From a virus: 64,000 bases of DNA. Each line of letters opens with the position of its first letter. The first letter of the stretch is position 1. A model generated the notes under the pieces. The model was given only the letters and a program-made list of their open reading frames with translations. It ran no database searches and had not been told where the DNA came from. A program made the translations under genes and the position numbers. The DNA is taken from IMG/VR virus record IMGVR_UViG_3300030406_003150, positions 14,122 to 78,121 of that record. One strand, written 5' to 3'. This document shows positions 19,249 to 29,643 of this stretch, one piece after another.

Positions 19249-19261
19249 TGAATTTAATTTG

Positions 19262-19335
19262 TACACCCGACAGGATTCGAACCTGTGACCGTCTGCTTAG
19301 AAGGCAGATGCTCTATCCAACTGAGCTACGAGTGC
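19262..19335 (-). tRNA. tRNA-Arg(TCT)
   Basis: GCACTCG/CGGGTGT acceptor, anticodon arm TCTGC-CTTCTAA-GCAGA, T arm ACAGG-TTCGAAT-CCTGT; CCA not encoded. Confidence 0.93.
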
Positions 19336-19670: not shown

Positions 19671-19674
19671 CGTG

Positions 19675-19746
19675 TGCTCTCTATTGGATTCGAACCAATG
19701 ACCTACGAATTATGAGTTCGCTGCTCTACCGCTGAGCTAAGAGAGC
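19675..19746 (-). tRNA. tRNA with CAT anticodon (Ile2 or elongator Met)
   Basis: GCTCTCT/AGAGAGC acceptor, GCGAA-CTCATAA-TTCGT, ATTGG-TTCGAAT-CCAAT; G1-C72 paired, so not an initiator. Confidence 0.9.
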
Positions 19747-23012: not shown

Positions 23013-23501
23013 TCAGCTAGCTATAAATACTTCTAGTTGAGCTGTGGCGTTTTCATCATTAATAGCGATGATGCTCTCAAGATCTACCAAACTACCTATC
23101 GCAGTAGCAGTAGCAGCGTCATCATCTACTGCTGCGACCCCTACAGCCTTACCCAACATAAAGCTTTTACCAGCTTCTAACAATATCGTCGCCTGAGTAC
23201 TCGCGGCAGCACCGCCGTTTGCTGCAAGCTGTAGAGAAAGAGTCACAGAGTTCGTACTCTCTAAGTTCGTTACTCTTACATACTTGACGTCATCGTCATC
23301 TAAAGCGCCATCCGCCGTAGTAACGTCAGTTCTAAAGTTGGCTATCGTAGTTTGAGTGGCAGATCCTCCCCCGTCAGCAGGTAAAGTGACAAGTCTTTTG
23401 AAAGACTGTGTAACACTAGCAATATTTAGCGTGTTTGTTGCACCCTGCTGAGTGCCATTGAGCGAAAGCTCTTCTCTAATTGTTACAGTGAGTACTCCCA
23501 T
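23013..23501 (-). CDS. Putative virion beta-sandwich protein
   Basis: YVRVTNLE motif resembles 62421..62828 and 62828..63223; TATATTTG 4 nt upstream. Confidence 0.55.
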   Translation of the reverse strand: MGVLTVTIREELSLNGTQQGATNTLNIASVTQSFKRLVTLPADGGGSATQTTIANFRTDVTTADGALDDDDVKYVRVTNLESTNSVTLSLQLAANGGAAASTQATILLEAGKSFMLGKAVGVAAVDDDAATATAIGSLVDLESIIAINDENATAQLEVFIAS

Positions 23502-23513
23502 GCAACAAATATA

Positions 23514-23642
23514 CTATTTTTTATTCTTAAAGAATTCAATCTGTCGCAAGCGCTTCAGTGCAGCCTTCTTAGTCAAGAATTTACCTAGCAACTTCCCCTT
23601 CTTACTGCGGATCTCGTAGGTATTCTTCCTTTTTACTATCAT
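23514..23642 (-). CDS. Small basic protein
   Basis: MIVKRKNTYEIRSKKGKLLGKFLTKKAALKRLRQIEFFK; probable start 23642. Confidence 0.45.
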   Translation of the reverse strand: MIVKRKNTYEIRSKKGKLLGKFLTKKAALKRLRQIEFFKNKK

Positions 23643-23773
23643 GACAGTCCTTGTGCCTTTACAGCTCGTATGGTTTGATTGACGTGGGATTATTTTAAAG
23701 TGCATACGCACTCATAAATTTACCAATGTAGCATTTAAAACAACTTATTGTGTCACTTCACTAACAATGTAGG

Positions 23774-23804
23774 CAAAGTTACAGCTTTTTTTTTAAAAAG
23801 TCAA
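23774..23804 (-). promoter_or_regulatory. Leftward promoter TTGACT-N17-TAACTTTG
   Basis: Same architecture as the three early promoters. Confidence 0.7.
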
Positions 23805-24232
23805 GCCATAAAGTAGATTCTAAGTAAAGAGTCTTATGTGTTTGTAATACAGCATCTTACTAGATTTAAAAAGTGGACACATATATACCCCTTCTCTCGC
23901 CAACACGCCTCCCGTCTTCTTTTTTTTGGTAGAAATACAGATCTGGGGGATTATATATGTATGTACACACACGCGCACGCACACCAAAACCGCCTGCGTA
24001 ACCCCGCCCCCATAATGCGGCTGCAGTTTGCGCGTAGTTTTTTGGCTTTTGTGCTGCCACAAGTAACTAAGAATCAGCAGGTTACAGCATCCAGTTGAAG
24101 CAACGGTTGAATTTATGGACGCTAACTGGCTGAAAGAGAGGCAGAACAATCCCCTCACCTACACACATACTTGCGCACATATACACGCACACGTAGGTAC
24201 ACACACACATCACACACGCATAGTGAGCGCAC

Positions 24233-24271
24233 TGTGGGCACATAGCGGGTGGTGTGGGCACACAGCGGGTG
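24233..24271. repeat. Tandem 19-nt direct repeat TGTGGGCACAYAGCGGGTG
   Basis: Copies at 24233-24251 and 24253-24271 with one mismatch. Confidence 0.8.
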
Positions 24272-24387
24272 ATGATGCGCTGTAATGCGCTATGATGCAG
24301 GCACACATACAAGCCAGACCCAAAAAAATTTTGCCTCGGAAAGCCCAGTGTTTGCAGGGGTTTCAGCGATGCGACCAAAAAAAGTGC

Positions 24388-24418
24388 TTGACAAAGGTGT
24401 TTCGATTCCCTACCTTTG
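24388..24418 (+). promoter_or_regulatory. Early promoter P1 TTGACA-N17-TACCTTTG
   Basis: Bacteroidota -7 box plus TTGACA, preceded by an A-tract. Confidence 0.8.
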
Positions 24419-24458
24419 TCGCCGTCGGCAACGTCGCTGACCTCAAAATCTCTTACCT

Positions 24459-25076
24459 ATGGCAAACGCCACATACACTCCCACACACTGCCCACAGACA
24501 GGGCGCAAGTTCACCAAGGCTGAGCGCAAGGCCGCTAACAAGGCGAAGTACGCTGCTGAGCGTGCTGCTCAGGCTGCATCGAAGCCCAAGTCCAAGCGCA
24601 AGGCCAAGGCGCAAAAGGCCTCACCCAAGCCCACGAAGGTGAGCGTACCCACTCGCAAAGCGAAGCTGATGCGTATGACCAAGGCTCAGTTGGTTGACCT
24701 CATCATCGGCGCTGAACCACCAGCACCCAAGCGCAAGCCCAAGGCGAAGCGCAAGGCTGTAGCGAAAGGTCGCAAGGCCTCACCCAGCGAGCGTGTAGCA
24801 GACAAACAGGAGCGCGGGGCACACGGTGCGAAGGGTGTCGGCCCAATCGAGCCGCAGCCTGAGGGTCACACGTCAGACGTGAAGCAAGCACGTAAGGCGA
24901 CGGAGGCGATGGGGGAGCGCAACCGCCGCAAGCATGCGAAGAAGCTGGCTATGCGCTGGGCATTTGCACCGAACTACGGTGGCATGTTCCTTGAAGGTCA
25001 GCAAGCGGAGTTGCAGCGCCTGCTCGGTGACGTGGATGTGTCCACCTACGAGGACGTAATGGCCGCTGTACTCTAA
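24459..25076 (+). CDS. Lys/Ala-rich histone-H1-like nucleic-acid-binding early protein
   Basis: KA/KP-rich low-complexity tracts flanking a LMRMTKAQLVDLI helix. Confidence 0.55.
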   Translation: MANATYTPTHCPQTGRKFTKAERKAANKAKYAAERAAQAASKPKSKRKAKAQKASPKPTKVSVPTRKAKLMRMTKAQLVDLIIGAEPPAPKRKPKAKRKAVAKGRKASPSERVADKQERGAHGAKGVGPIEPQPEGHTSDVKQARKATEAMGERNRRKHAKKLAMRWAFAPNYGGMFLEGQQAELQRLLGDVDVSTYEDVMAAVL

Positions 25077-25088
25077 GCCTGTCGAATC

Positions 25089-25688
25089 ATGGTAAGTTTC
25101 AGCACACTACCGCTCGCTACAGTCACACGCCACACCAAGGCGTGGGCTGGGCGGGCATCCGATCACGAGCGCGAGGAAGGCTTGCGCTGGTACAAGGAAG
25201 CGATGGAATTCGCTGAATACCTGTCGATTACGTTCAACATCTCAAAGGTCGTAGCTGCGGGCGTGATAAGCGCCCTGAGCCCGAACAACAAGTGGGAGCG
25301 CAACAAAATCGATGCATTCAACCTGATTCAGGCATACGTAGACGGTCGCACGATGGATGATGTGAGCGTGTGTACGTACACGAACAACAAGCGCCGCGCG
25401 TGGGGCATCCTGAGCGGTGACGTGGAGATGCTACGCAAGGCACGCAAGACCCACGCATTTGCGCTGAATGTGGGTGCGATGGATGAATCTGTCGTTACCA
25501 TTGACAAGTGGATGCTCCGTGCGTTTGTGACTACGTCGCTCAAGCCCAAGGACGTGCCTACTACGTGTACTCCCGTGCAGTACGACCGTCTGAGCGCTCA
25601 CTTCTGCAAGGTGGCGCGTGCTATGGGGTACAAGCCCTACGAGTTGCAGGCTATCATATGGGTCACCATTCGTAATCGATGGCTCTGA
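25089..25688 (+). CDS. Conserved phage protein, HhH-glycosylase-like (DUF7178-like)
   Basis: G..WY, AGVISALSPNNKWERN, VTIDKWM, ELQAIIW motifs. Confidence 0.55.
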   Translation: MVSFSTLPLATVTRHTKAWAGRASDHEREEGLRWYKEAMEFAEYLSITFNISKVVAAGVISALSPNNKWERNKIDAFNLIQAYVDGRTMDDVSVCTYTNNKRRAWGILSGDVEMLRKARKTHAFALNVGAMDESVVTIDKWMLRAFVTTSLKPKDVPTTCTPVQYDRLSAHFCKVARAMGYKPYELQAIIWVTIRNRWL

Positions 25689-25722
25689 AACCCCAGTAAA
25701 TGCTGGCAAATCGAAAATAAAT

Positions 25723-25753
25723 TTGACAACGCTGTTTGGATTCCTTATCTTTG
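25723..25753 (+). promoter_or_regulatory. Early promoter P2 TTGACA-N17-TATCTTTG
   Basis: Same architecture as P1. Confidence 0.8.
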
Positions 25754-25782
25754 CAGTCCACGAAATCAAAATTCTCTTGCAT

Positions 25783-26022
25783 ATGGAAAACGCACCACGC
25801 TACTGCTCAATCACCAACGAACCTATGTGGGAAGGTTGGTACTTCGAAGGGATTGGGTTCTTCTACGTCAAGTACGAGAAGGATGCGCTCCGCATCTGCC
25901 AAGAACACGACTACGCCACGCTGGATGAGGCGTTCGATGACGAGTTCATGTACTGGACTGACTGGCACGACATCCCCAAGGACGAGTGGGACTTACCCAC
26001 GAACCTACCCAAGGTACACTGA
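25783..26022 (+). CDS. Small acidic early protein
   Basis: Start MENAPRY after an AAATCAAAAT leader; its stop TGA lies inside the hammerhead core. Confidence 0.65.
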   Translation: MENAPRYCSITNEPMWEGWYFEGIGFFYVKYEKDALRICQEHDYATLDEAFDDEFMYWTDWHDIPKDEWDLPTNLPKVH

Positions 26023-26062
26023 TGAGTCCTGAATGGACGAAACGCTGCGAAGCGTCTGTATC
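26013..26062 (+). ncRNA. Type I hammerhead ribozyme HH1 (predicted cleavage after GUC, C26056)
   Basis: GGUACA-CUGAUGA-GUCC(UGAAU)GGAC-GAAA-CGCU(GCGA)AGCG-UC-UGUAUC: complete core and three stems. Confidence 0.92.
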
Positions 26063-26080
26063 AATCAAAATCTCTCACAC

Positions 26081-26332
26081 ATGAGCAAATACGAAAACGG
26101 CTACCTGCCTAAGATTGCCTACCACATGTTCAAGGGCAATCAAGACCGAGTTGATTACTTCGTTCATCGACAACTGACCACGTACGGGCCAATCGAAGAC
26201 CGCCAGCGCTGGTGGGTAATCGAGGAAGTCCACCGACTCCGAGAACAACAAGCGAAGCCTAAGACCTTCGAAGATGCATTGGCACTCTGCCACAACAAAG
26301 ACGAGGTGCTGGCTCAACTCAAAAACCTCTAA
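26081..26332 (+). CDS. Small early protein
   Basis: Start MSKYENG after AATCAAAATCTCTCACAC; lies between the two hammerheads. Confidence 0.65.
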   Translation: MSKYENGYLPKIAYHMFKGNQDRVDYFVHRQLTTYGPIEDRQRWWVIEEVHRLREQQAKPKTFEDALALCHNKDEVLAQLKNL

Positions 26333-26382
26333 GGCACACTGACGAGGCTTGAATAGCCGAAACGCCGCGAGGCGTATGTGTC
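26333..26382 (+). ncRNA. Type I hammerhead ribozyme HH2 (predicted cleavage after GUA, A26376)
   Basis: GGCACA-CUGACGA-GGCU(UGAAU)AGCC-GAAA-CGCC(GCGA)GGCG-UA-UGUGUC; compensatory changes relative to HH1. Confidence 0.92.
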
Positions 26383-26401
26383 AAATCAAAATCATTACAC
26401 T

Positions 26402-26701
26402 ATGCACACAAGCATTCCCCGTCTACGTGCCCTGCACATCGAGTTCTTCGGCCCTACCAACACGAAGGGCGCACGAGTCCGCATCAAGGACGAACGCAAC
26501 AACGTCACCAAGTGGCTGGCATATGACTACGCTGTCGGAGATATCGTAGAGCAGTCGTATACGTACCTTGAGCAGCAGGGCGTAATCAAAGAGGGCACGG
26601 ATATGTGGGGTGACAAGGACGTCTACCCGATGCTGATTCTGCACGACACACGCCGAGGCTACACGCTGGGCGTACCTAACTTCGAAACCCCAATCAAATG
26701 A
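26402..26701 (+). CDS. Small early protein
   Basis: FFGPTNTKGARVRI motif; start MHTSIP. Confidence 0.6.
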   Translation: MHTSIPRLRALHIEFFGPTNTKGARVRIKDERNNVTKWLAYDYAVGDIVEQSYTYLEQQGVIKEGTDMWGDKDVYPMLILHDTRRGYTLGVPNFETPIK

Positions 26702-26765
26702 GTACAGCAATCCTTTGTGCCTACGCTGTGGGCACGGTAATCGTTACAATTCAATCCCTGAAAAA

Positions 26766-26948
26766 ATGATACGAAGCACTTTCGACAAGTGGATACACAA
26801 AGGCGAGGTCATAGGCAGCGTGCGTTGTGTGAACTACGCTAAGATGGCTTTGGCTGTCTGGGCGCAAGGAAGGGACGCAGATGCCTTCGTATATCTGGAC
26901 AAAGCAAAGCGAGAGTTTTACATCACGGCAGATGAACTGCCATTCTAA
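26766..26948 (+). CDS. Small early protein
   Basis: Probable start MIRSTF, ATGA-coupled to a 23-aa hydrophobic ORF at 26698..26769. Confidence 0.45.
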   Translation: MIRSTFDKWIHKGEVIGSVRCVNYAKMALAVWAQGRDADAFVYLDKAKREFYITADELPF

Positions 26949-26959
26949 ATCAAATCACA

Positions 26960-27250
26960 ATGAAAACACAACAACACATTGACGCGCTGTACGAACGGCG
27001 CAAGACAGCAGGCGGATTCGAGCAGGCGTTGATCGACGCATACTTGCGAGCCGATGGCGGCAATACAAGAATTCTCGAAGAGGCTTTCAAGGGTACTCGG
27101 TTTGACCTGACTCCGAAACCCAAGTTCAACAGCGGCGTGGAGACGCTACGCAATGCTGCGTACTGGTCAGGGCATCGTGACGAGTACCTGAACGACGACA
27201 AAACAGCCTACCAACTCATCGACGAATACCTGAATGAAAAAGAACAATGA
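26960..27250 (+). CDS. Small early protein
   Basis: GGFEQALIDAYLRADGGNTRILEEAF motif. Confidence 0.6.
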   Translation: MKTQQHIDALYERRKTAGGFEQALIDAYLRADGGNTRILEEAFKGTRFDLTPKPKFNSGVETLRNAAYWSGHRDEYLNDDKTAYQLIDEYLNEKEQ

Positions 27251-27369
27251 GAGCAATGACGGACTTATGGAGAGAAGGGTACGACTACCCAAGCGATGAC
27301 GATGATGCATATGAGTATGACATCATGGAGGAAGCAGACCGAGCATACGAATACGAAAACGATATATGA
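27247..27369 (+). CDS. 40-aa highly acidic peptide
   Basis: MRAMTDLWREGYDYPSDDDDAYEYDIMEEADRAYEYENDI; ATGA overlap with the upstream stop. Confidence 0.5.
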   Translation: MRAMTDLWREGYDYPSDDDDAYEYDIMEEADRAYEYENDI

Positions 27370-27370
27370 A

Positions 27371-27637
27371 ATGGAAACAAAATTCTTGAACGAACGATTA
27401 CCCATCCGCATAGGCACCAAGGTCGTGTATCGCGGTGGCTTTGGCTTCGAAGGCCGCAAGGTGGCGCGAGTCACACACATAGAGCAGACGTTCCACCCGA
27501 ACGAGAAGTACGGACACGAGGTGGACGAGGTGACATACTCGCAAGACCATTACGTACTCAATCTGGATGACGGCCACTGGTGTTACTCCCACCAAGTCGA
27601 TGGGGTCGTTGTAAATGACTGTGAATCAACCGATTAG
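27371..27637 (+). CDS. Small SH3-like early protein
   Basis: IGTKVVYRGGFG...V..I...LDDGHWCY; probable start METKFL. Confidence 0.55.
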   Translation: METKFLNERLPIRIGTKVVYRGGFGFEGRKVARVTHIEQTFHPNEKYGHEVDEVTYSQDHYVLNLDDGHWCYSHQVDGVVVNDCESTD

Positions 27638-27646
27638 AAAAAAAAC

Positions 27647-27677
27647 TTGACAACGGCGTTTGAATGTCGTATCTTTG
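27647..27677 (+). promoter_or_regulatory. Early promoter P3 TTGACA-N17-TATCTTTG
   Basis: Same architecture as P1 and P2. Confidence 0.8.
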
Positions 27678-27697
27678 CATCGTCAATCGATTACTGG

Positions 27698-27761
27698 TTG
27701 AGCTGTCCACTCAAGGTGGTGTATGTACTCCGACACATACGGGGCGAAAGCCTCGGACAGC
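27698..27761 (+). ncRNA. Structured 5' leader RNA, family unassigned
   Basis: GCUGUCC/GGACAGC, GUAUGU/ACAUAC and GGGGC-GAAA-GCCUC stems. Confidence 0.45.
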
Positions 27762-27793
27762 CTTCCACAATCACAAATCAAAATCTCTAACAC

Positions 27794-27991
27794 ATGGAAA
27801 AGCAAGAATACTTTTACTACTTCGAGAATGGCGGATGGAACTCAGAGTTCGCCACGTCTATCGAGGAGGCTCGGCAGATGGCTGAGGCACGATGGGCACA
27901 CTTGGACAGCCTGACCCCTGCACCTAAGACGTTCAAGCCCGTAAAGGGGAACGAGGAGCACTACAAGTCGCTGCTCAATATGTTCTACTAA
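27794..27991 (+). CDS. Small early protein
   Basis: 65 aa; conserved leader motif upstream. Confidence 0.6.
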   Translation: MEKQEYFYYFENGGWNSEFATSIEEARQMAEARWAHLDSLTPAPKTFKPVKGNEEHYKSLLNMFY

Positions 27992-27999
27992 TCACACAT

Positions 28000-28129
28000 A
28001 GCATTGACATATCCCGCATGAGGATGCGGTAAGGATGTGCCAAACCAACAAACGTTCCTTCTACCCGTTACCACGGGCTTATGGCAACGAGCGTGAGGGA
28101 TGGCGGTGGTTCGATCCCACCCTATGCTA
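28000..28129 (+). ncRNA. tRNA-like structured RNA (acceptor plus T arm around a long insert)
   Basis: AGCAUUG/CUAUGCU acceptor (6 of 7 pairs), GGUGG-UUCGAUC-CCACC T arm, two internal long hairpins. Confidence 0.5.
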
Positions 28130-28330
28130 CAACGGTACTCACCATTAAATCTGGTAGGTGAGCTAAGTCGATACCAGGACCACTGAGCGACACGTTAAAT
28201 CACCAGGAAGACCATTACCTGTGGTGTGAGCTATGGAATCATGAGGCTTGCACCTACGAGAGAGAAACTCTGCGTGGCGTGGATAGAAGGGATAAACAAA
28301 GCCGACCACATTAACTCAAAACTCTAACAC

Positions 28331-28477
28331 ATGAAAGACGAAATCATTGCCCGACTCGAATACTTCGAAGAAACCATTGCAGGTGAAATCGAAACTTGGC
28401 TAGACCCCGTGACGGGTGACTACTACCACGTACCTATAGAAATCGTGCGTGACTTTGACAACATCGAAAAACTCTAA
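28331..28477 (+). CDS. 48-aa acidic protein
   Basis: MKDEIIARLEYFEETIAGEIETWLDPVTGDYYHVPIEIVRDFDNIEKL; leader motif upstream. Confidence 0.55.
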   Translation: MKDEIIARLEYFEETIAGEIETWLDPVTGDYYHVPIEIVRDFDNIEKL

Positions 28478-28480
28478 CAC

Positions 28481-28696
28481 ATGAAAGTACTCCAACCAAC
28501 GTCAATAACTACAACAGGCACCCCAGTGAAGTGCCAAAGCATCTCAATCGACAGCAAAGAAATAGCAATCCTGTTCTTCGGAACACGAGAAGTGGACATC
28601 ATCGCCGTCCCTGAAGCCCACATCCCTATTGGGGACGTGGACGAGTACCTCGAAGAACTCGGATACAACTTATCAGAAATCCTTTACATGACATGA
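28481..28696 (+). CDS. Small early protein
   Basis: 71 aa; leader motif upstream. Confidence 0.5.
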   Translation: MKVLQPTSITTTGTPVKCQSISIDSKEIAILFFGTREVDIIAVPEAHIPIGDVDEYLEELGYNLSEILYMT

Positions 28697-28845
28697 CATA
28701 CGAACAATTTGAACTGCTCCGTAAGTGGGCAGAGCGTGTGGCTAACACAGCCAACGACACTGACACGAACATACGCTCCATCGATCTCGTGCATGACATT
28801 GCAGGAATTTTGGCTAATGACGAACACTTTTTGCCACGACTGTGA
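28693..28845 (+). CDS. 50-aa protein
   Basis: MTYEQF...DLVHDIAGILANDEHFLPRL; ATGA coupling. Confidence 0.5.
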   Translation: MTYEQFELLRKWAERVANTANDTDTNIRSIDLVHDIAGILANDEHFLPRL

Positions 28846-29075
28846 TAACTGGAGACCTCAACCTACAAGAGATGAGCAGACTGACACAAAGCAAGGGCGT
28901 GTGCCCGAACTGCAAGGCTGACAGCCACATCAGCTACAGCAAGCTGAAAGACCAGTACGACCCCGACCTTGTATACTTCGACGTCAAGTGCCACAACTGC
29001 GGTACTACGTGGGACGAGCATTACAGCCTCGTGTTCTTCGAACAAGACAACATTCAAATACCATCACAACAATGA
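28842..29075 (+). CDS. Zinc-ribbon protein
   Basis: CPNC...CHNC. Confidence 0.55.
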   Translation: MITGDLNLQEMSRLTQSKGVCPNCKADSHISYSKLKDQYDPDLVYFDVKCHNCGTTWDEHYSLVFFEQDNIQIPSQQ

Positions 29076-29479
29076 AATACTGGAACGAACAAGGACGATA
29101 CCAACAGGAGTACAACGCATACTGGAAGGCACTTGTACCCGACACAGGCGAAGCATCTACCACCGAAGGCGAGGCACTCCGAGCCATCAGCCGAATCTAC
29201 TACGATATCTACAACAACGGTGGCTGCAACATCCTCGAAAGCCAAGAAGTGTATGACGATGACGGCAACTACGAGTGCGATGAGCATTCAATCTCCTCGT
29301 TCTACGACAGCTTCTTTGATACTGTTGCCCGATTCACGGGGGACCACGACAACGTGCGTTTACTCAAGATGAAGGTGGAGGACTTGGGTGTGGACTACTG
29401 GCACAAAGACCTCGGAACTATGCTTGATAGCCTGATTGACAAAACCATAGAAAAGATTGGAACAGAAAAAGCAGCATGA
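29072..29479 (+). CDS. Conserved phage hypothetical protein
   Basis: YWNEQGRYQ...LVP..G...T.EGEALRAISRIYYD.YNNG. Confidence 0.6.
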   Translation: MKYWNEQGRYQQEYNAYWKALVPDTGEASTTEGEALRAISRIYYDIYNNGGCNILESQEVYDDDGNYECDEHSISSFYDSFFDTVARFTGDHDNVRLLKMKVEDLGVDYWHKDLGTMLDSLIDKTIEKIGTEKAA

Positions 29480-29643
29480 CACATGAACAACTCCAAGAAA
29501 TCTTCGGCCTCGAATGGATTGACTACCTCGACTATTTGTGTGAAGAGTAGTGCAAACGAAGATCCCGCGAAGGATTTCAACGAGTGGATGCAGCACGTCT
29601 ACTCACAAGTCAAAATCAATTACGAACGTAAACTCAAAATCTC

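Follow-up and report, generated by a model that had tools for sequence, protein, structure and literature searches.

Why would a phage place a small ribozyme on each side of a single small gene? The early region of a marine virus raises this question. The virus, found in marine metagenomes, is represented by IMG/VR record IMGVR_UViG_3300030406_003150, a genome of 78,121 base pairs (bp) rated complete, of which bases 14122-78121 were analyzed (64,000 nucleotides (nt), hereafter the window; coordinates refer to it unless another contig is named). An initial annotation made from the sequence alone had recognized two complete type I hammerhead ribozymes on the plus strand, at 26013-26062 (HH1) and 26333-26382 (HH2), placed them at gene junctions of the early operon (the genes concerned are here called A, B and C), and interpreted them as processing a polycistronic transcript into pieces of which one might circularize. 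We observed the motif, its fold, covariation and conservation, its behavior as part of gene cassettes and its leader context, and the identification of HH1 and HH2 as type I hammerheads by core, fold and covariation is strongly supported. We consider it probable that both are active ribozymes that split the early A-B-C transcript, with the ribozyme serving as an insulator or promoter surrogate.

HH1 and HH2 share one compact build, in which three helices surround the core: a 6-bp stem I that is open, with the 5' and 3' ends of the element lying within it, a 4-bp stem II, and a stem III capped by a GNRA loop. In HH1, stem I is GGUACA/UGUAUC, the core is CUGAUGA plus GAAA, stem II with its loop is GUCC-UGAAU-GGAC, and stem III is CGCU-GCGA-AGCG with the closing pair A15.1-U16.1; the predicted cut follows the triplet GUC, between C26056 and U26057, 24 nt 5' of the ATG at 26081. 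The corresponding parts of HH2 are GGCACA/UGUGUC for stem I, CUGACGA in the core, GGCU-UGAAU-AGCC for stem II and CGCC-GCGA-GGCG for stem III, with the predicted cut after the triplet GUA, between A26376 and U26377, 25 nt 5' of the ATG at 26402. The catalytic core is complete in both copies (C3 U4 G5 A6 N7 G8 A9, G12 A13 A14, A15.1-U16.1 and H17), and every stem shows at least one compensatory double change between the two copies. The TGA stop of gene A supplies U4-G5-A6 of the HH1 core CUGAUGA, the first base of HH2 lies directly 3' of the TAA of gene B, and the RNA between the predicted cuts, 26057-26376, is 320 nt long. The initial annotation had placed both elements correctly to the base, and what it had said of the cores, the NUH sites GUC and GUA, the loops UGAAU and GCGA, the compensatory changes, the two stop codons, the 24-25 nt from cut to ATG with the leader on the downstream side, and the length of the excised piece is all borne out by the sequence. 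There is also an in-frame ATG at 26033-26035, in loop II of HH1, which lengthens the gene B frame to 99 amino acids (26033-26332); judging from its homologs, which begin at the equivalent of 26081, it is not the start of gene B. Gene callers may nevertheless pick it and so hide HH1 inside a longer coding annotation.

How far could such elements arise by chance? A loose pattern holding only the core was uninformative, with 18 matches in comparison with 18.9 expected. A strict descriptor, which demanded the core, H17 and the A-U closing pair together with mismatch-free stems II and III and at least 4 bp in stem I, found exactly HH1 and HH2 on both strands of the window and nothing in 200 dinucleotide shuffles, and the three-way hammerhead junction is the minimum-free-energy fold of both 50-mers. 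When the window was scanned with a covariance model that we built from an alignment of independent phage hammerheads (hereafter R1), HH2 scored 78.0 bits and HH1 77.2 bits, while the next best match reached 11 bits; the same scan, extended to the remaining 14 kilobases (kb) of the genome, revealed no further, diverged hammerhead.

The independent hammerheads came from a pattern scan of IMG/VR in which only the core, loop II and the GNRA loop III were fixed and every stem position was left as N. The scan returned 28 other contigs, whose stems have many differing sequences and yet invariably pair at four of four positions in both stem II and stem III and form a stem I that is exactly 6 bp long. 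Among the 27 distinct sequences, all 405 of 405 stem cells pair and double changes occur in 12 of 15 pairs; none of 500 shuffles was comparable, and slid registers pair at only about 30%. The core bases are invariant across these 27 homologs, and so are an A just 5' of stem I and another just 3' of it, at positions that were unconstrained in the scan. The conservation in related phages that the initial annotation had proposed to look for was found in these homologs and also in close relatives, which retain hammerheads at the same junctions. Variants of HH1 from other marine metagenomes keep stem III self-complementary although its sequence is wholly different (ACCC-UUCG-GGGU and ACCC-UGAA-GGGU). 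A tertiary contact between stem I and loop II is needed for fast cleavage at physiological Mg2+. Stem I of HH1 and HH2 has no internal loop and instead carries the conserved unpaired A's beside its short 6-bp helix, and loop II is U-N-N-N-U-like in the relatives; judging from this conservation, the invariant flanking A's are plausible candidates for a tertiary contact with loop II.

The position of these ribozymes relative to genes is also constrained. In 25 independent phage hammerheads the distance from the cut to the next ATG has a median of 26 nt and falls at 19-32 nt in 20 cases, and, counted from where stem I starts, the upstream stop codon falls between -16 and +17 in 20 of 23 cases. 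The separately retrieved viral contig G001 (locus L037, G001:C1:567-3625) carries two hammerheads on its minus strand, at contig positions 2067-2125 and 1059-1115, which lie about 1 kb apart and bracket three small open reading frames (ORFs), each hammerhead being just 3' of a stop and approximately 15-25 nt before an ATG. Unannotated type I hammerheads matching R1 were found in cultured phages as well, each in an intergenic gap of the early region: Agrobacterium phage OLIVR1 (47 bits; L094 2492-2548), Pelagibacter phage HTVC019P (46 bits; L093 2493-2560) and Pseudomonas phage UFV-P2 (23 bits; L095 1158-1219). The HTVC019P copy precedes a MarR gene and an integrase. HTVC019P and OLIVR1 would allow RNA ends to be mapped.

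What does the transcript look like that HH1 and HH2 would divide? The early region runs on the plus strand from about 24380 and contains three copies of a promoter-like 43-nt repeat (24378-24420, 25713-25755 and 27637-27679) with the conserved core TTTG ... TA(C/T)CTTTG, which is of the Bacteroidota -33/-7 type. The copy upstream of gene A (25713..25755, TTTG/TTGACA ... TATCTTTG) is, from its sequence, the presumed promoter and start of the A-B-C transcript; its TAnnTTTG box is kept in relatives that lack TTGACA (L091 and L083). From 25755 to 27637 the plus strand has no site resembling a promoter or a terminator, and co-transcription of genes A, B and C is therefore presumed. Gene A (25783..26022, 79 amino acids) has its last three codons and its TGA stop inside HH1. 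Past the HH1 cut comes a 24-nt A-rich leader, UGUAUC-AAUCAAAAUCUCUCACAC (26057..26080), which has no Shine-Dalgarno site and would stay on gene B with a 5'-OH. Gene B (26081..26332, 83 amino acids) has homologs that start with MSKYENGYLPK (in L041, L083 and L075), and the 25-nt leader past the HH2 cut, UGUGUC-AAAUCAAAAUCAUUACACU (26377..26401), would stay on gene C after cleavage. Gene C (26402..26701, 99 amino acids) has homologs of 70-86% identity at 9 viral loci on 8 contigs. All three genes lie on the plus strand. Shine-Dalgarno sequences are absent from the leaders of the early region, where a motif A(A)UCAAAAUCUC..ACAUG stands 5' of early genes lacking translational coupling, both after promoters and after the two hammerheads.

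We infer the cleavage itself, the co-transcription of the three genes and the benefit of a 5'-proximal leader. The early transcript would start at the promoter near 25755 and run through genes A, B and C, and each ribozyme would fold once the 3' strand of its stem I has been made and would then cleave itself 3' of its triplet, GUC (26056) or GUA (26376). The upstream piece, extending 34-44 nt past its stop codon, would finish with stems II and III as a compact pair of hairpins and a terminal 2',3'-cyclic phosphate, and the downstream piece would begin with a 5'-OH and an unstructured A-rich leader of 24-25 nt. Protection from decay by the 5'-OH, raised in the initial annotation, is plausible. 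Three separate messages would be obtained from one promoter in this way, and the downstream genes would receive the same 5'-proximal leader lacking a Shine-Dalgarno sequence that promoters give to first genes. The ribozyme would then act as an insulator or promoter surrogate, allowing gene cassettes to be shuffled without losing expression. Processing of the polycistron fits the locus because A-B-C has no internal promoter or terminator and a standard early-gene leader follows each cut. RNase III processing of T7 early mRNA, with which the initial annotation had compared the locus, and the tRNA punctuation of mitochondrial transcripts are analogies only: in them, too, separate messages arise from one long transcript by cuts between genes, whereas the cut predicted here is protein-free and leaves 5'-OH and cyclic-phosphate ends.

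Relatives of the locus show how the ribozymes behave when the genes around them change. Their loci were fetched via the neighboring DUF7178 gene and genes A, B and C and then scanned with R1; single-protein searches with genes A and B returned close relatives only. Where the window has the order promoter, A, hammerhead, B, hammerhead, C, loci L039 and L040 have A, hammerhead, B, hammerhead, C with the ribozymes 235 nt apart, L041 lacks gene A and has promoter, B, hammerhead, C, and L047 lacks gene B and has A, hammerhead and another gene. Gene B is followed by a hammerhead and a gene of 72 amino acids in L075, and in L083 a promoter, gene B, a hammerhead and a gene of 124 amino acids stand in a row; L091 has promoter, A and a tRNA-like RNA, without a hammerhead. 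Metagenome contigs with A, hammerhead, C and no gene B occur in a run labeled DNA and as an RNA-library contig. The subtype of the hammerhead follows the upstream gene, gene A going with GGUACA stems and gene B with GGCACA stems. A GGCACA-type hammerhead lies directly 3' of gene B in all six of the six relatives found, and a GGUACA-type hammerhead comes next after the gene A homologs of L039, L040 and L047, with none after gene A in L091. The ribozyme usually contains the end of the upstream ORF, with the core UGA often as its stop, and the downstream gene varies (gene C, the 72- and 124-amino-acid ORFs, and others). Gain and loss of genes between strains, including gene B, takes place exactly at these elements at the DNA level, and the ends of strain deletions fall inside the repeats formed by hammerhead and leader.

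These observations would also suit another explanation, in which the hammerhead is a 3' module of the upstream ORF cassette that trims the message past its stop so that two hairpins and a cyclic phosphate protect its end, the leader on the downstream side being incidental. The association of each subtype with its upstream gene while the downstream gene varies speaks for it, as does the overlap of the ribozyme with the last codons of the upstream ORF, whose stop is often the core UGA, and ribozymes in a 3' untranslated region can change expression (reporter work cited in PMC6765202). On the other hand, the hammerhead and its leader are conserved as a single unit regardless of which gene comes next, and the distance from cut to ATG is tightly constrained among unrelated phages. 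Furthermore, what stands before gene B is a hammerhead in the window, L039 and L040 but a TTTG..TAnnTTTG promoter in L041 and L083, with the same leader both ways; that a promoter can stand in for the hammerhead at this place points to a role on the 5' side. We therefore regard a purely 3' function as unlikely, although a 3'-end role for the upstream message is compatible with, and not exclusive of, the cleavage of A-B-C into messages with their own leaders. It is because promoter and hammerhead replace each other before the same gene and leader that we read the ribozyme as a promoter surrogate.

The leader is found in a third setting as well. When copies in the lineage were deduplicated by their ATG, promoters preceded 17, hammerhead cut sites 9 and the 3' end of a tRNA-like element 2; the loci are mutually related, and these counts are descriptive only. 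The tRNA-like element lies at 27990-28330 in the window, at 8770-8940 in L040, near 8420 in L042 and at 1750-1920 in L091. It is large, with an acceptor-like stem and a GGTTCGA T-arm, in an ORF-free stretch of about 340 nt, and ARAGORN does not call these elements. In L040 and L042 the standard early-gene leader begins directly after the ...CGCUACUA 3' end of the element, which suggests, by analogy with the hammerhead cut, that it could serve as punctuation cut by RNase P or RNase Z. At 27680-27775, the third early promoter and the standard leader of the gene at 27794 are separated by a further structured RNA, about 95 nt long, in which a long-range stem (CUGUCC/GGACAG) surrounds two hairpins. 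It has one homolog, a variant form in L097, and is absent from L096 and L039-L041, whose promoter is directly adjacent to the leader; no Rfam family matched it at E<=10. Because other elements that make 5' ends precede the same leader, this RNA could by analogy be a further cleavage or processing module. Hammerhead, promoter, tRNA-like element and perhaps the 27680-27775 RNA may then be, in this phage lineage, interchangeable modules that place leaders lacking a Shine-Dalgarno sequence at or near a free 5' end, a generalization that we put forward only tentatively. If true, it would offer a testable answer on the purpose of bacterial and phage hammerheads, and if initiation in Bacteroidota favors unstructured 5'-proximal leaders, it would explain why phage hammerheads stand about 25 nt before start codons.

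Could the excised RNA have a life of its own? The ends that hammerheads leave, a 5'-OH and a 2',3'-cyclic phosphate, suit the ligase RtcB. It can be imagined that the 320-nt piece is joined by RtcB or by reversal of the hammerhead reaction into a circular translatable RNA or a mobile gene B cassette; apart from the end chemistry, the two ends could pair at five of six positions to rebuild a hammerhead, and strains with and without gene B differ exactly at the hammerheads. The initial annotation had called the ends compatible with circularization. However, the chimera formed at the junction has a C.A mismatch in stem I and a hammerhead fold probability of 0.087, in comparison with 0.39 and 0.54 for the native elements, and covariation preserves each ribozyme's own stem I, not the cross-pairing. 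L041, L075 and L083 have gene B with only the 3' hammerhead, so that the second flank is unconserved, and the form without gene B exists as DNA, making an event at the RNA level unnecessary. No joint of 26376 to 26057 was seen in the contigs of one small RNA run, in which the RNA contig comes from a strain without gene B. Retrozymes and viroid-like circular RNAs (de la Peña et al., PMC7761336, PMC7229834) likewise have two hammerheads around a short RNA and the same end chemistry, but there the two ribozymes are repeats, and their halves restore a perfect hammerhead where they join, whereas here the halves mismatch and the second flank is unconserved. Circular and spliced products were also sought by Perreault et al., who found none (PMC3088659). 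We consider circularization highly improbable, and of the interpretation in the initial annotation the hammerhead identity and the processing of a polycistron, which is the accepted reading for such clusters and fits the anatomy, are retained while circularization is dropped.

It is equally improbable that the motifs are not catalytic in vivo and serve as structured intergenic repeats for recombination in cassette exchange or as RNA hairpins, as the deletion ends inside the hammerhead-plus-leader repeats, the sub-threshold Rfam scores described below and the lack of observed RNA ends (in assembled contigs only) might suggest, because the core bases are invariant in 27 diverse phage copies while the three stems covary, which indicates selection on a folded, catalysis-competent RNA and not on DNA identity, and because hammerheads of the same build from other phages cleave (PMC3088659).

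Several points weigh against the view that HH1 and HH2 cut the A-B-C transcript and substitute for promoters. First, the Rfam check proposed in the initial annotation did not turn out as hoped: at gathering thresholds only two tRNAs were matched in the whole window, HH1 scores 23.6 bits with RF00163 (Hammerhead_1), below the gathering score of 34, and HH2 is not reported by the Rfam models even in a permissive search. HH1 does align with RF00163 end to end, and the permissive search of 23500-29500 gave HH1 alone, sub-threshold, and no other ribozyme class. HH1 and HH2 share with that family the core, the three-helix junction, the open stem I and the NUH site, but differ from it in scoring below threshold, in having no internal loop in stem I and in the conserved A's that flank the 6-bp stem I; the low scores reflect the limits of the curated seed, not an absent structural feature. 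Second, when HH1 is folded with 83 nt of natural flanks, the minimum-free-energy fold is not the hammerhead, with stems II and III staying in the centroid. Third, ribosomes terminating on the UGA in the HH1 core would unfold an uncut ribozyme. Fourth, a few leaders, such as those at 27794 and at L079 2995, follow something other than a promoter or a known cleavage element, and the promoter-surrogate idea itself is drawn from context. Finally, the only RNA-library contig that covers the site (25798-26064 plus 15 nt), from a strain without gene B, reads across the HH1 cut. The data comprised one small RNA run and three DNA runs, all as assembled contigs, which cannot show RNA ends and may derive from DNA, so this contig counts neither for nor against cleavage.

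Clustered phage hammerheads are not new. Perreault et al. 2011 (PMC3088659) described prophages and phages in which several hammerheads flank a single gene or a short block of genes, and proposed that they process transcripts into single-gene mRNAs; three tandem arrays were cleaved in vitro, and one cleaves in Escherichia coli. The layout of such clusters is found here, since two co-oriented copies 320 nt apart bracket gene B, and it recurs in L039, L040 and G001. Both here and there, several co-oriented hammerheads in one phage transcript bracket a small gene without assigned function, mRNA processing is the reading adopted, and the idea of a circular or spliced product, raised in that paper, was tested there with a negative result. 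The present case differs in its host lineage (a marine phage that probably infects Flavobacteriia), in having no Shine-Dalgarno sequences in its leaders, and in that both copies are compact type I elements; the interchange of the hammerhead with promoters and tRNA-like elements before a common leader is not among the features described in the accessible part of that paper. The same source reports that the hammerhead of halovirus HF2 lies 13 nt before a start codon, with a mapped mRNA 5' end at most 3 nt from the cut. The HHphage elements of haloviruses HF1 and HF2 thus resemble ours in having, there by mapping, an mRNA 5' end at the cut site, but they belong to an archaeal virus and are variant hammerheads in single copy before the first ORF of a transcript. 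According to a 2019 review (PMC6765202), the purpose of phage and bacterial hammerheads is undefined. For ends of the kind predicted here, cyPhyRNA-seq captures cyclic phosphates (PMC8782182).

Clustered hammerheads around single genes, mRNA processing and the circular-RNA idea were already published in 2011 (PMC3088659), and this locus leaves the knowledge of such clusters unchanged; its added value is modest. What is new is that the ribozyme travels with the upstream ORF, whose stop is often the core UGA, and that strains gain or lose gene B at these elements. Also new is that one leader without a Shine-Dalgarno sequence follows a promoter, a hammerhead or a tRNA-like element, which suggests that the cut acts as a promoter surrogate. 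The locus provides a natural comparison, in which some strains have a promoter and others a hammerhead ahead of the same gene and leader, and its ribozymes mark points of gene gain and loss between strains, which makes the insulator or promoter-surrogate idea directly testable with reporters.

The surroundings of the locus give some indication of its host and of the neighboring genes. Among cultured phages, the capsid protein matches only those of Flavobacterium, Cellulophaga and Maribacter, at about 30% identity, and the host is probably among marine Flavobacteriia because, in addition to these capsid homologs, the promoter repeat is of the Bacteroidota type and the leaders lack Shine-Dalgarno sequences. 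A blastn search of 24300-28300 against cultured phages gave no match. In PHROG and Pfam searches with genes A, B, C and their neighbors, only the DUF7178/phrog_3842 match and weak matches were obtained; genes A (from 25783) and B had no matches, and gene C had a weak match to phrog_3199 only. The early gene with the DUF7178/phrog_3842 match, at 25089-25688, has distant homologs in actinophages and cyanophages that are annotated as glycosylase. In L083 a 58-bit hammerhead lies immediately upstream of the DUF7178 gene, and in L045 and L046 a hammerhead of 39-45 bits lies about 0.7 kb upstream of it, with three small ORFs between. The divergent gap at 23950-24310, which separates a minus-strand block from the plus-strand early operon, is a CA/CACG-rich low-complexity stretch with short imperfect repeats and may be an origin or a regulatory region. 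The tRNAs of the window, tRNA-Arg(TCT) and tRNA-Met(CAT), are encoded on the minus strand at 19261-19335 and 19674-19746.

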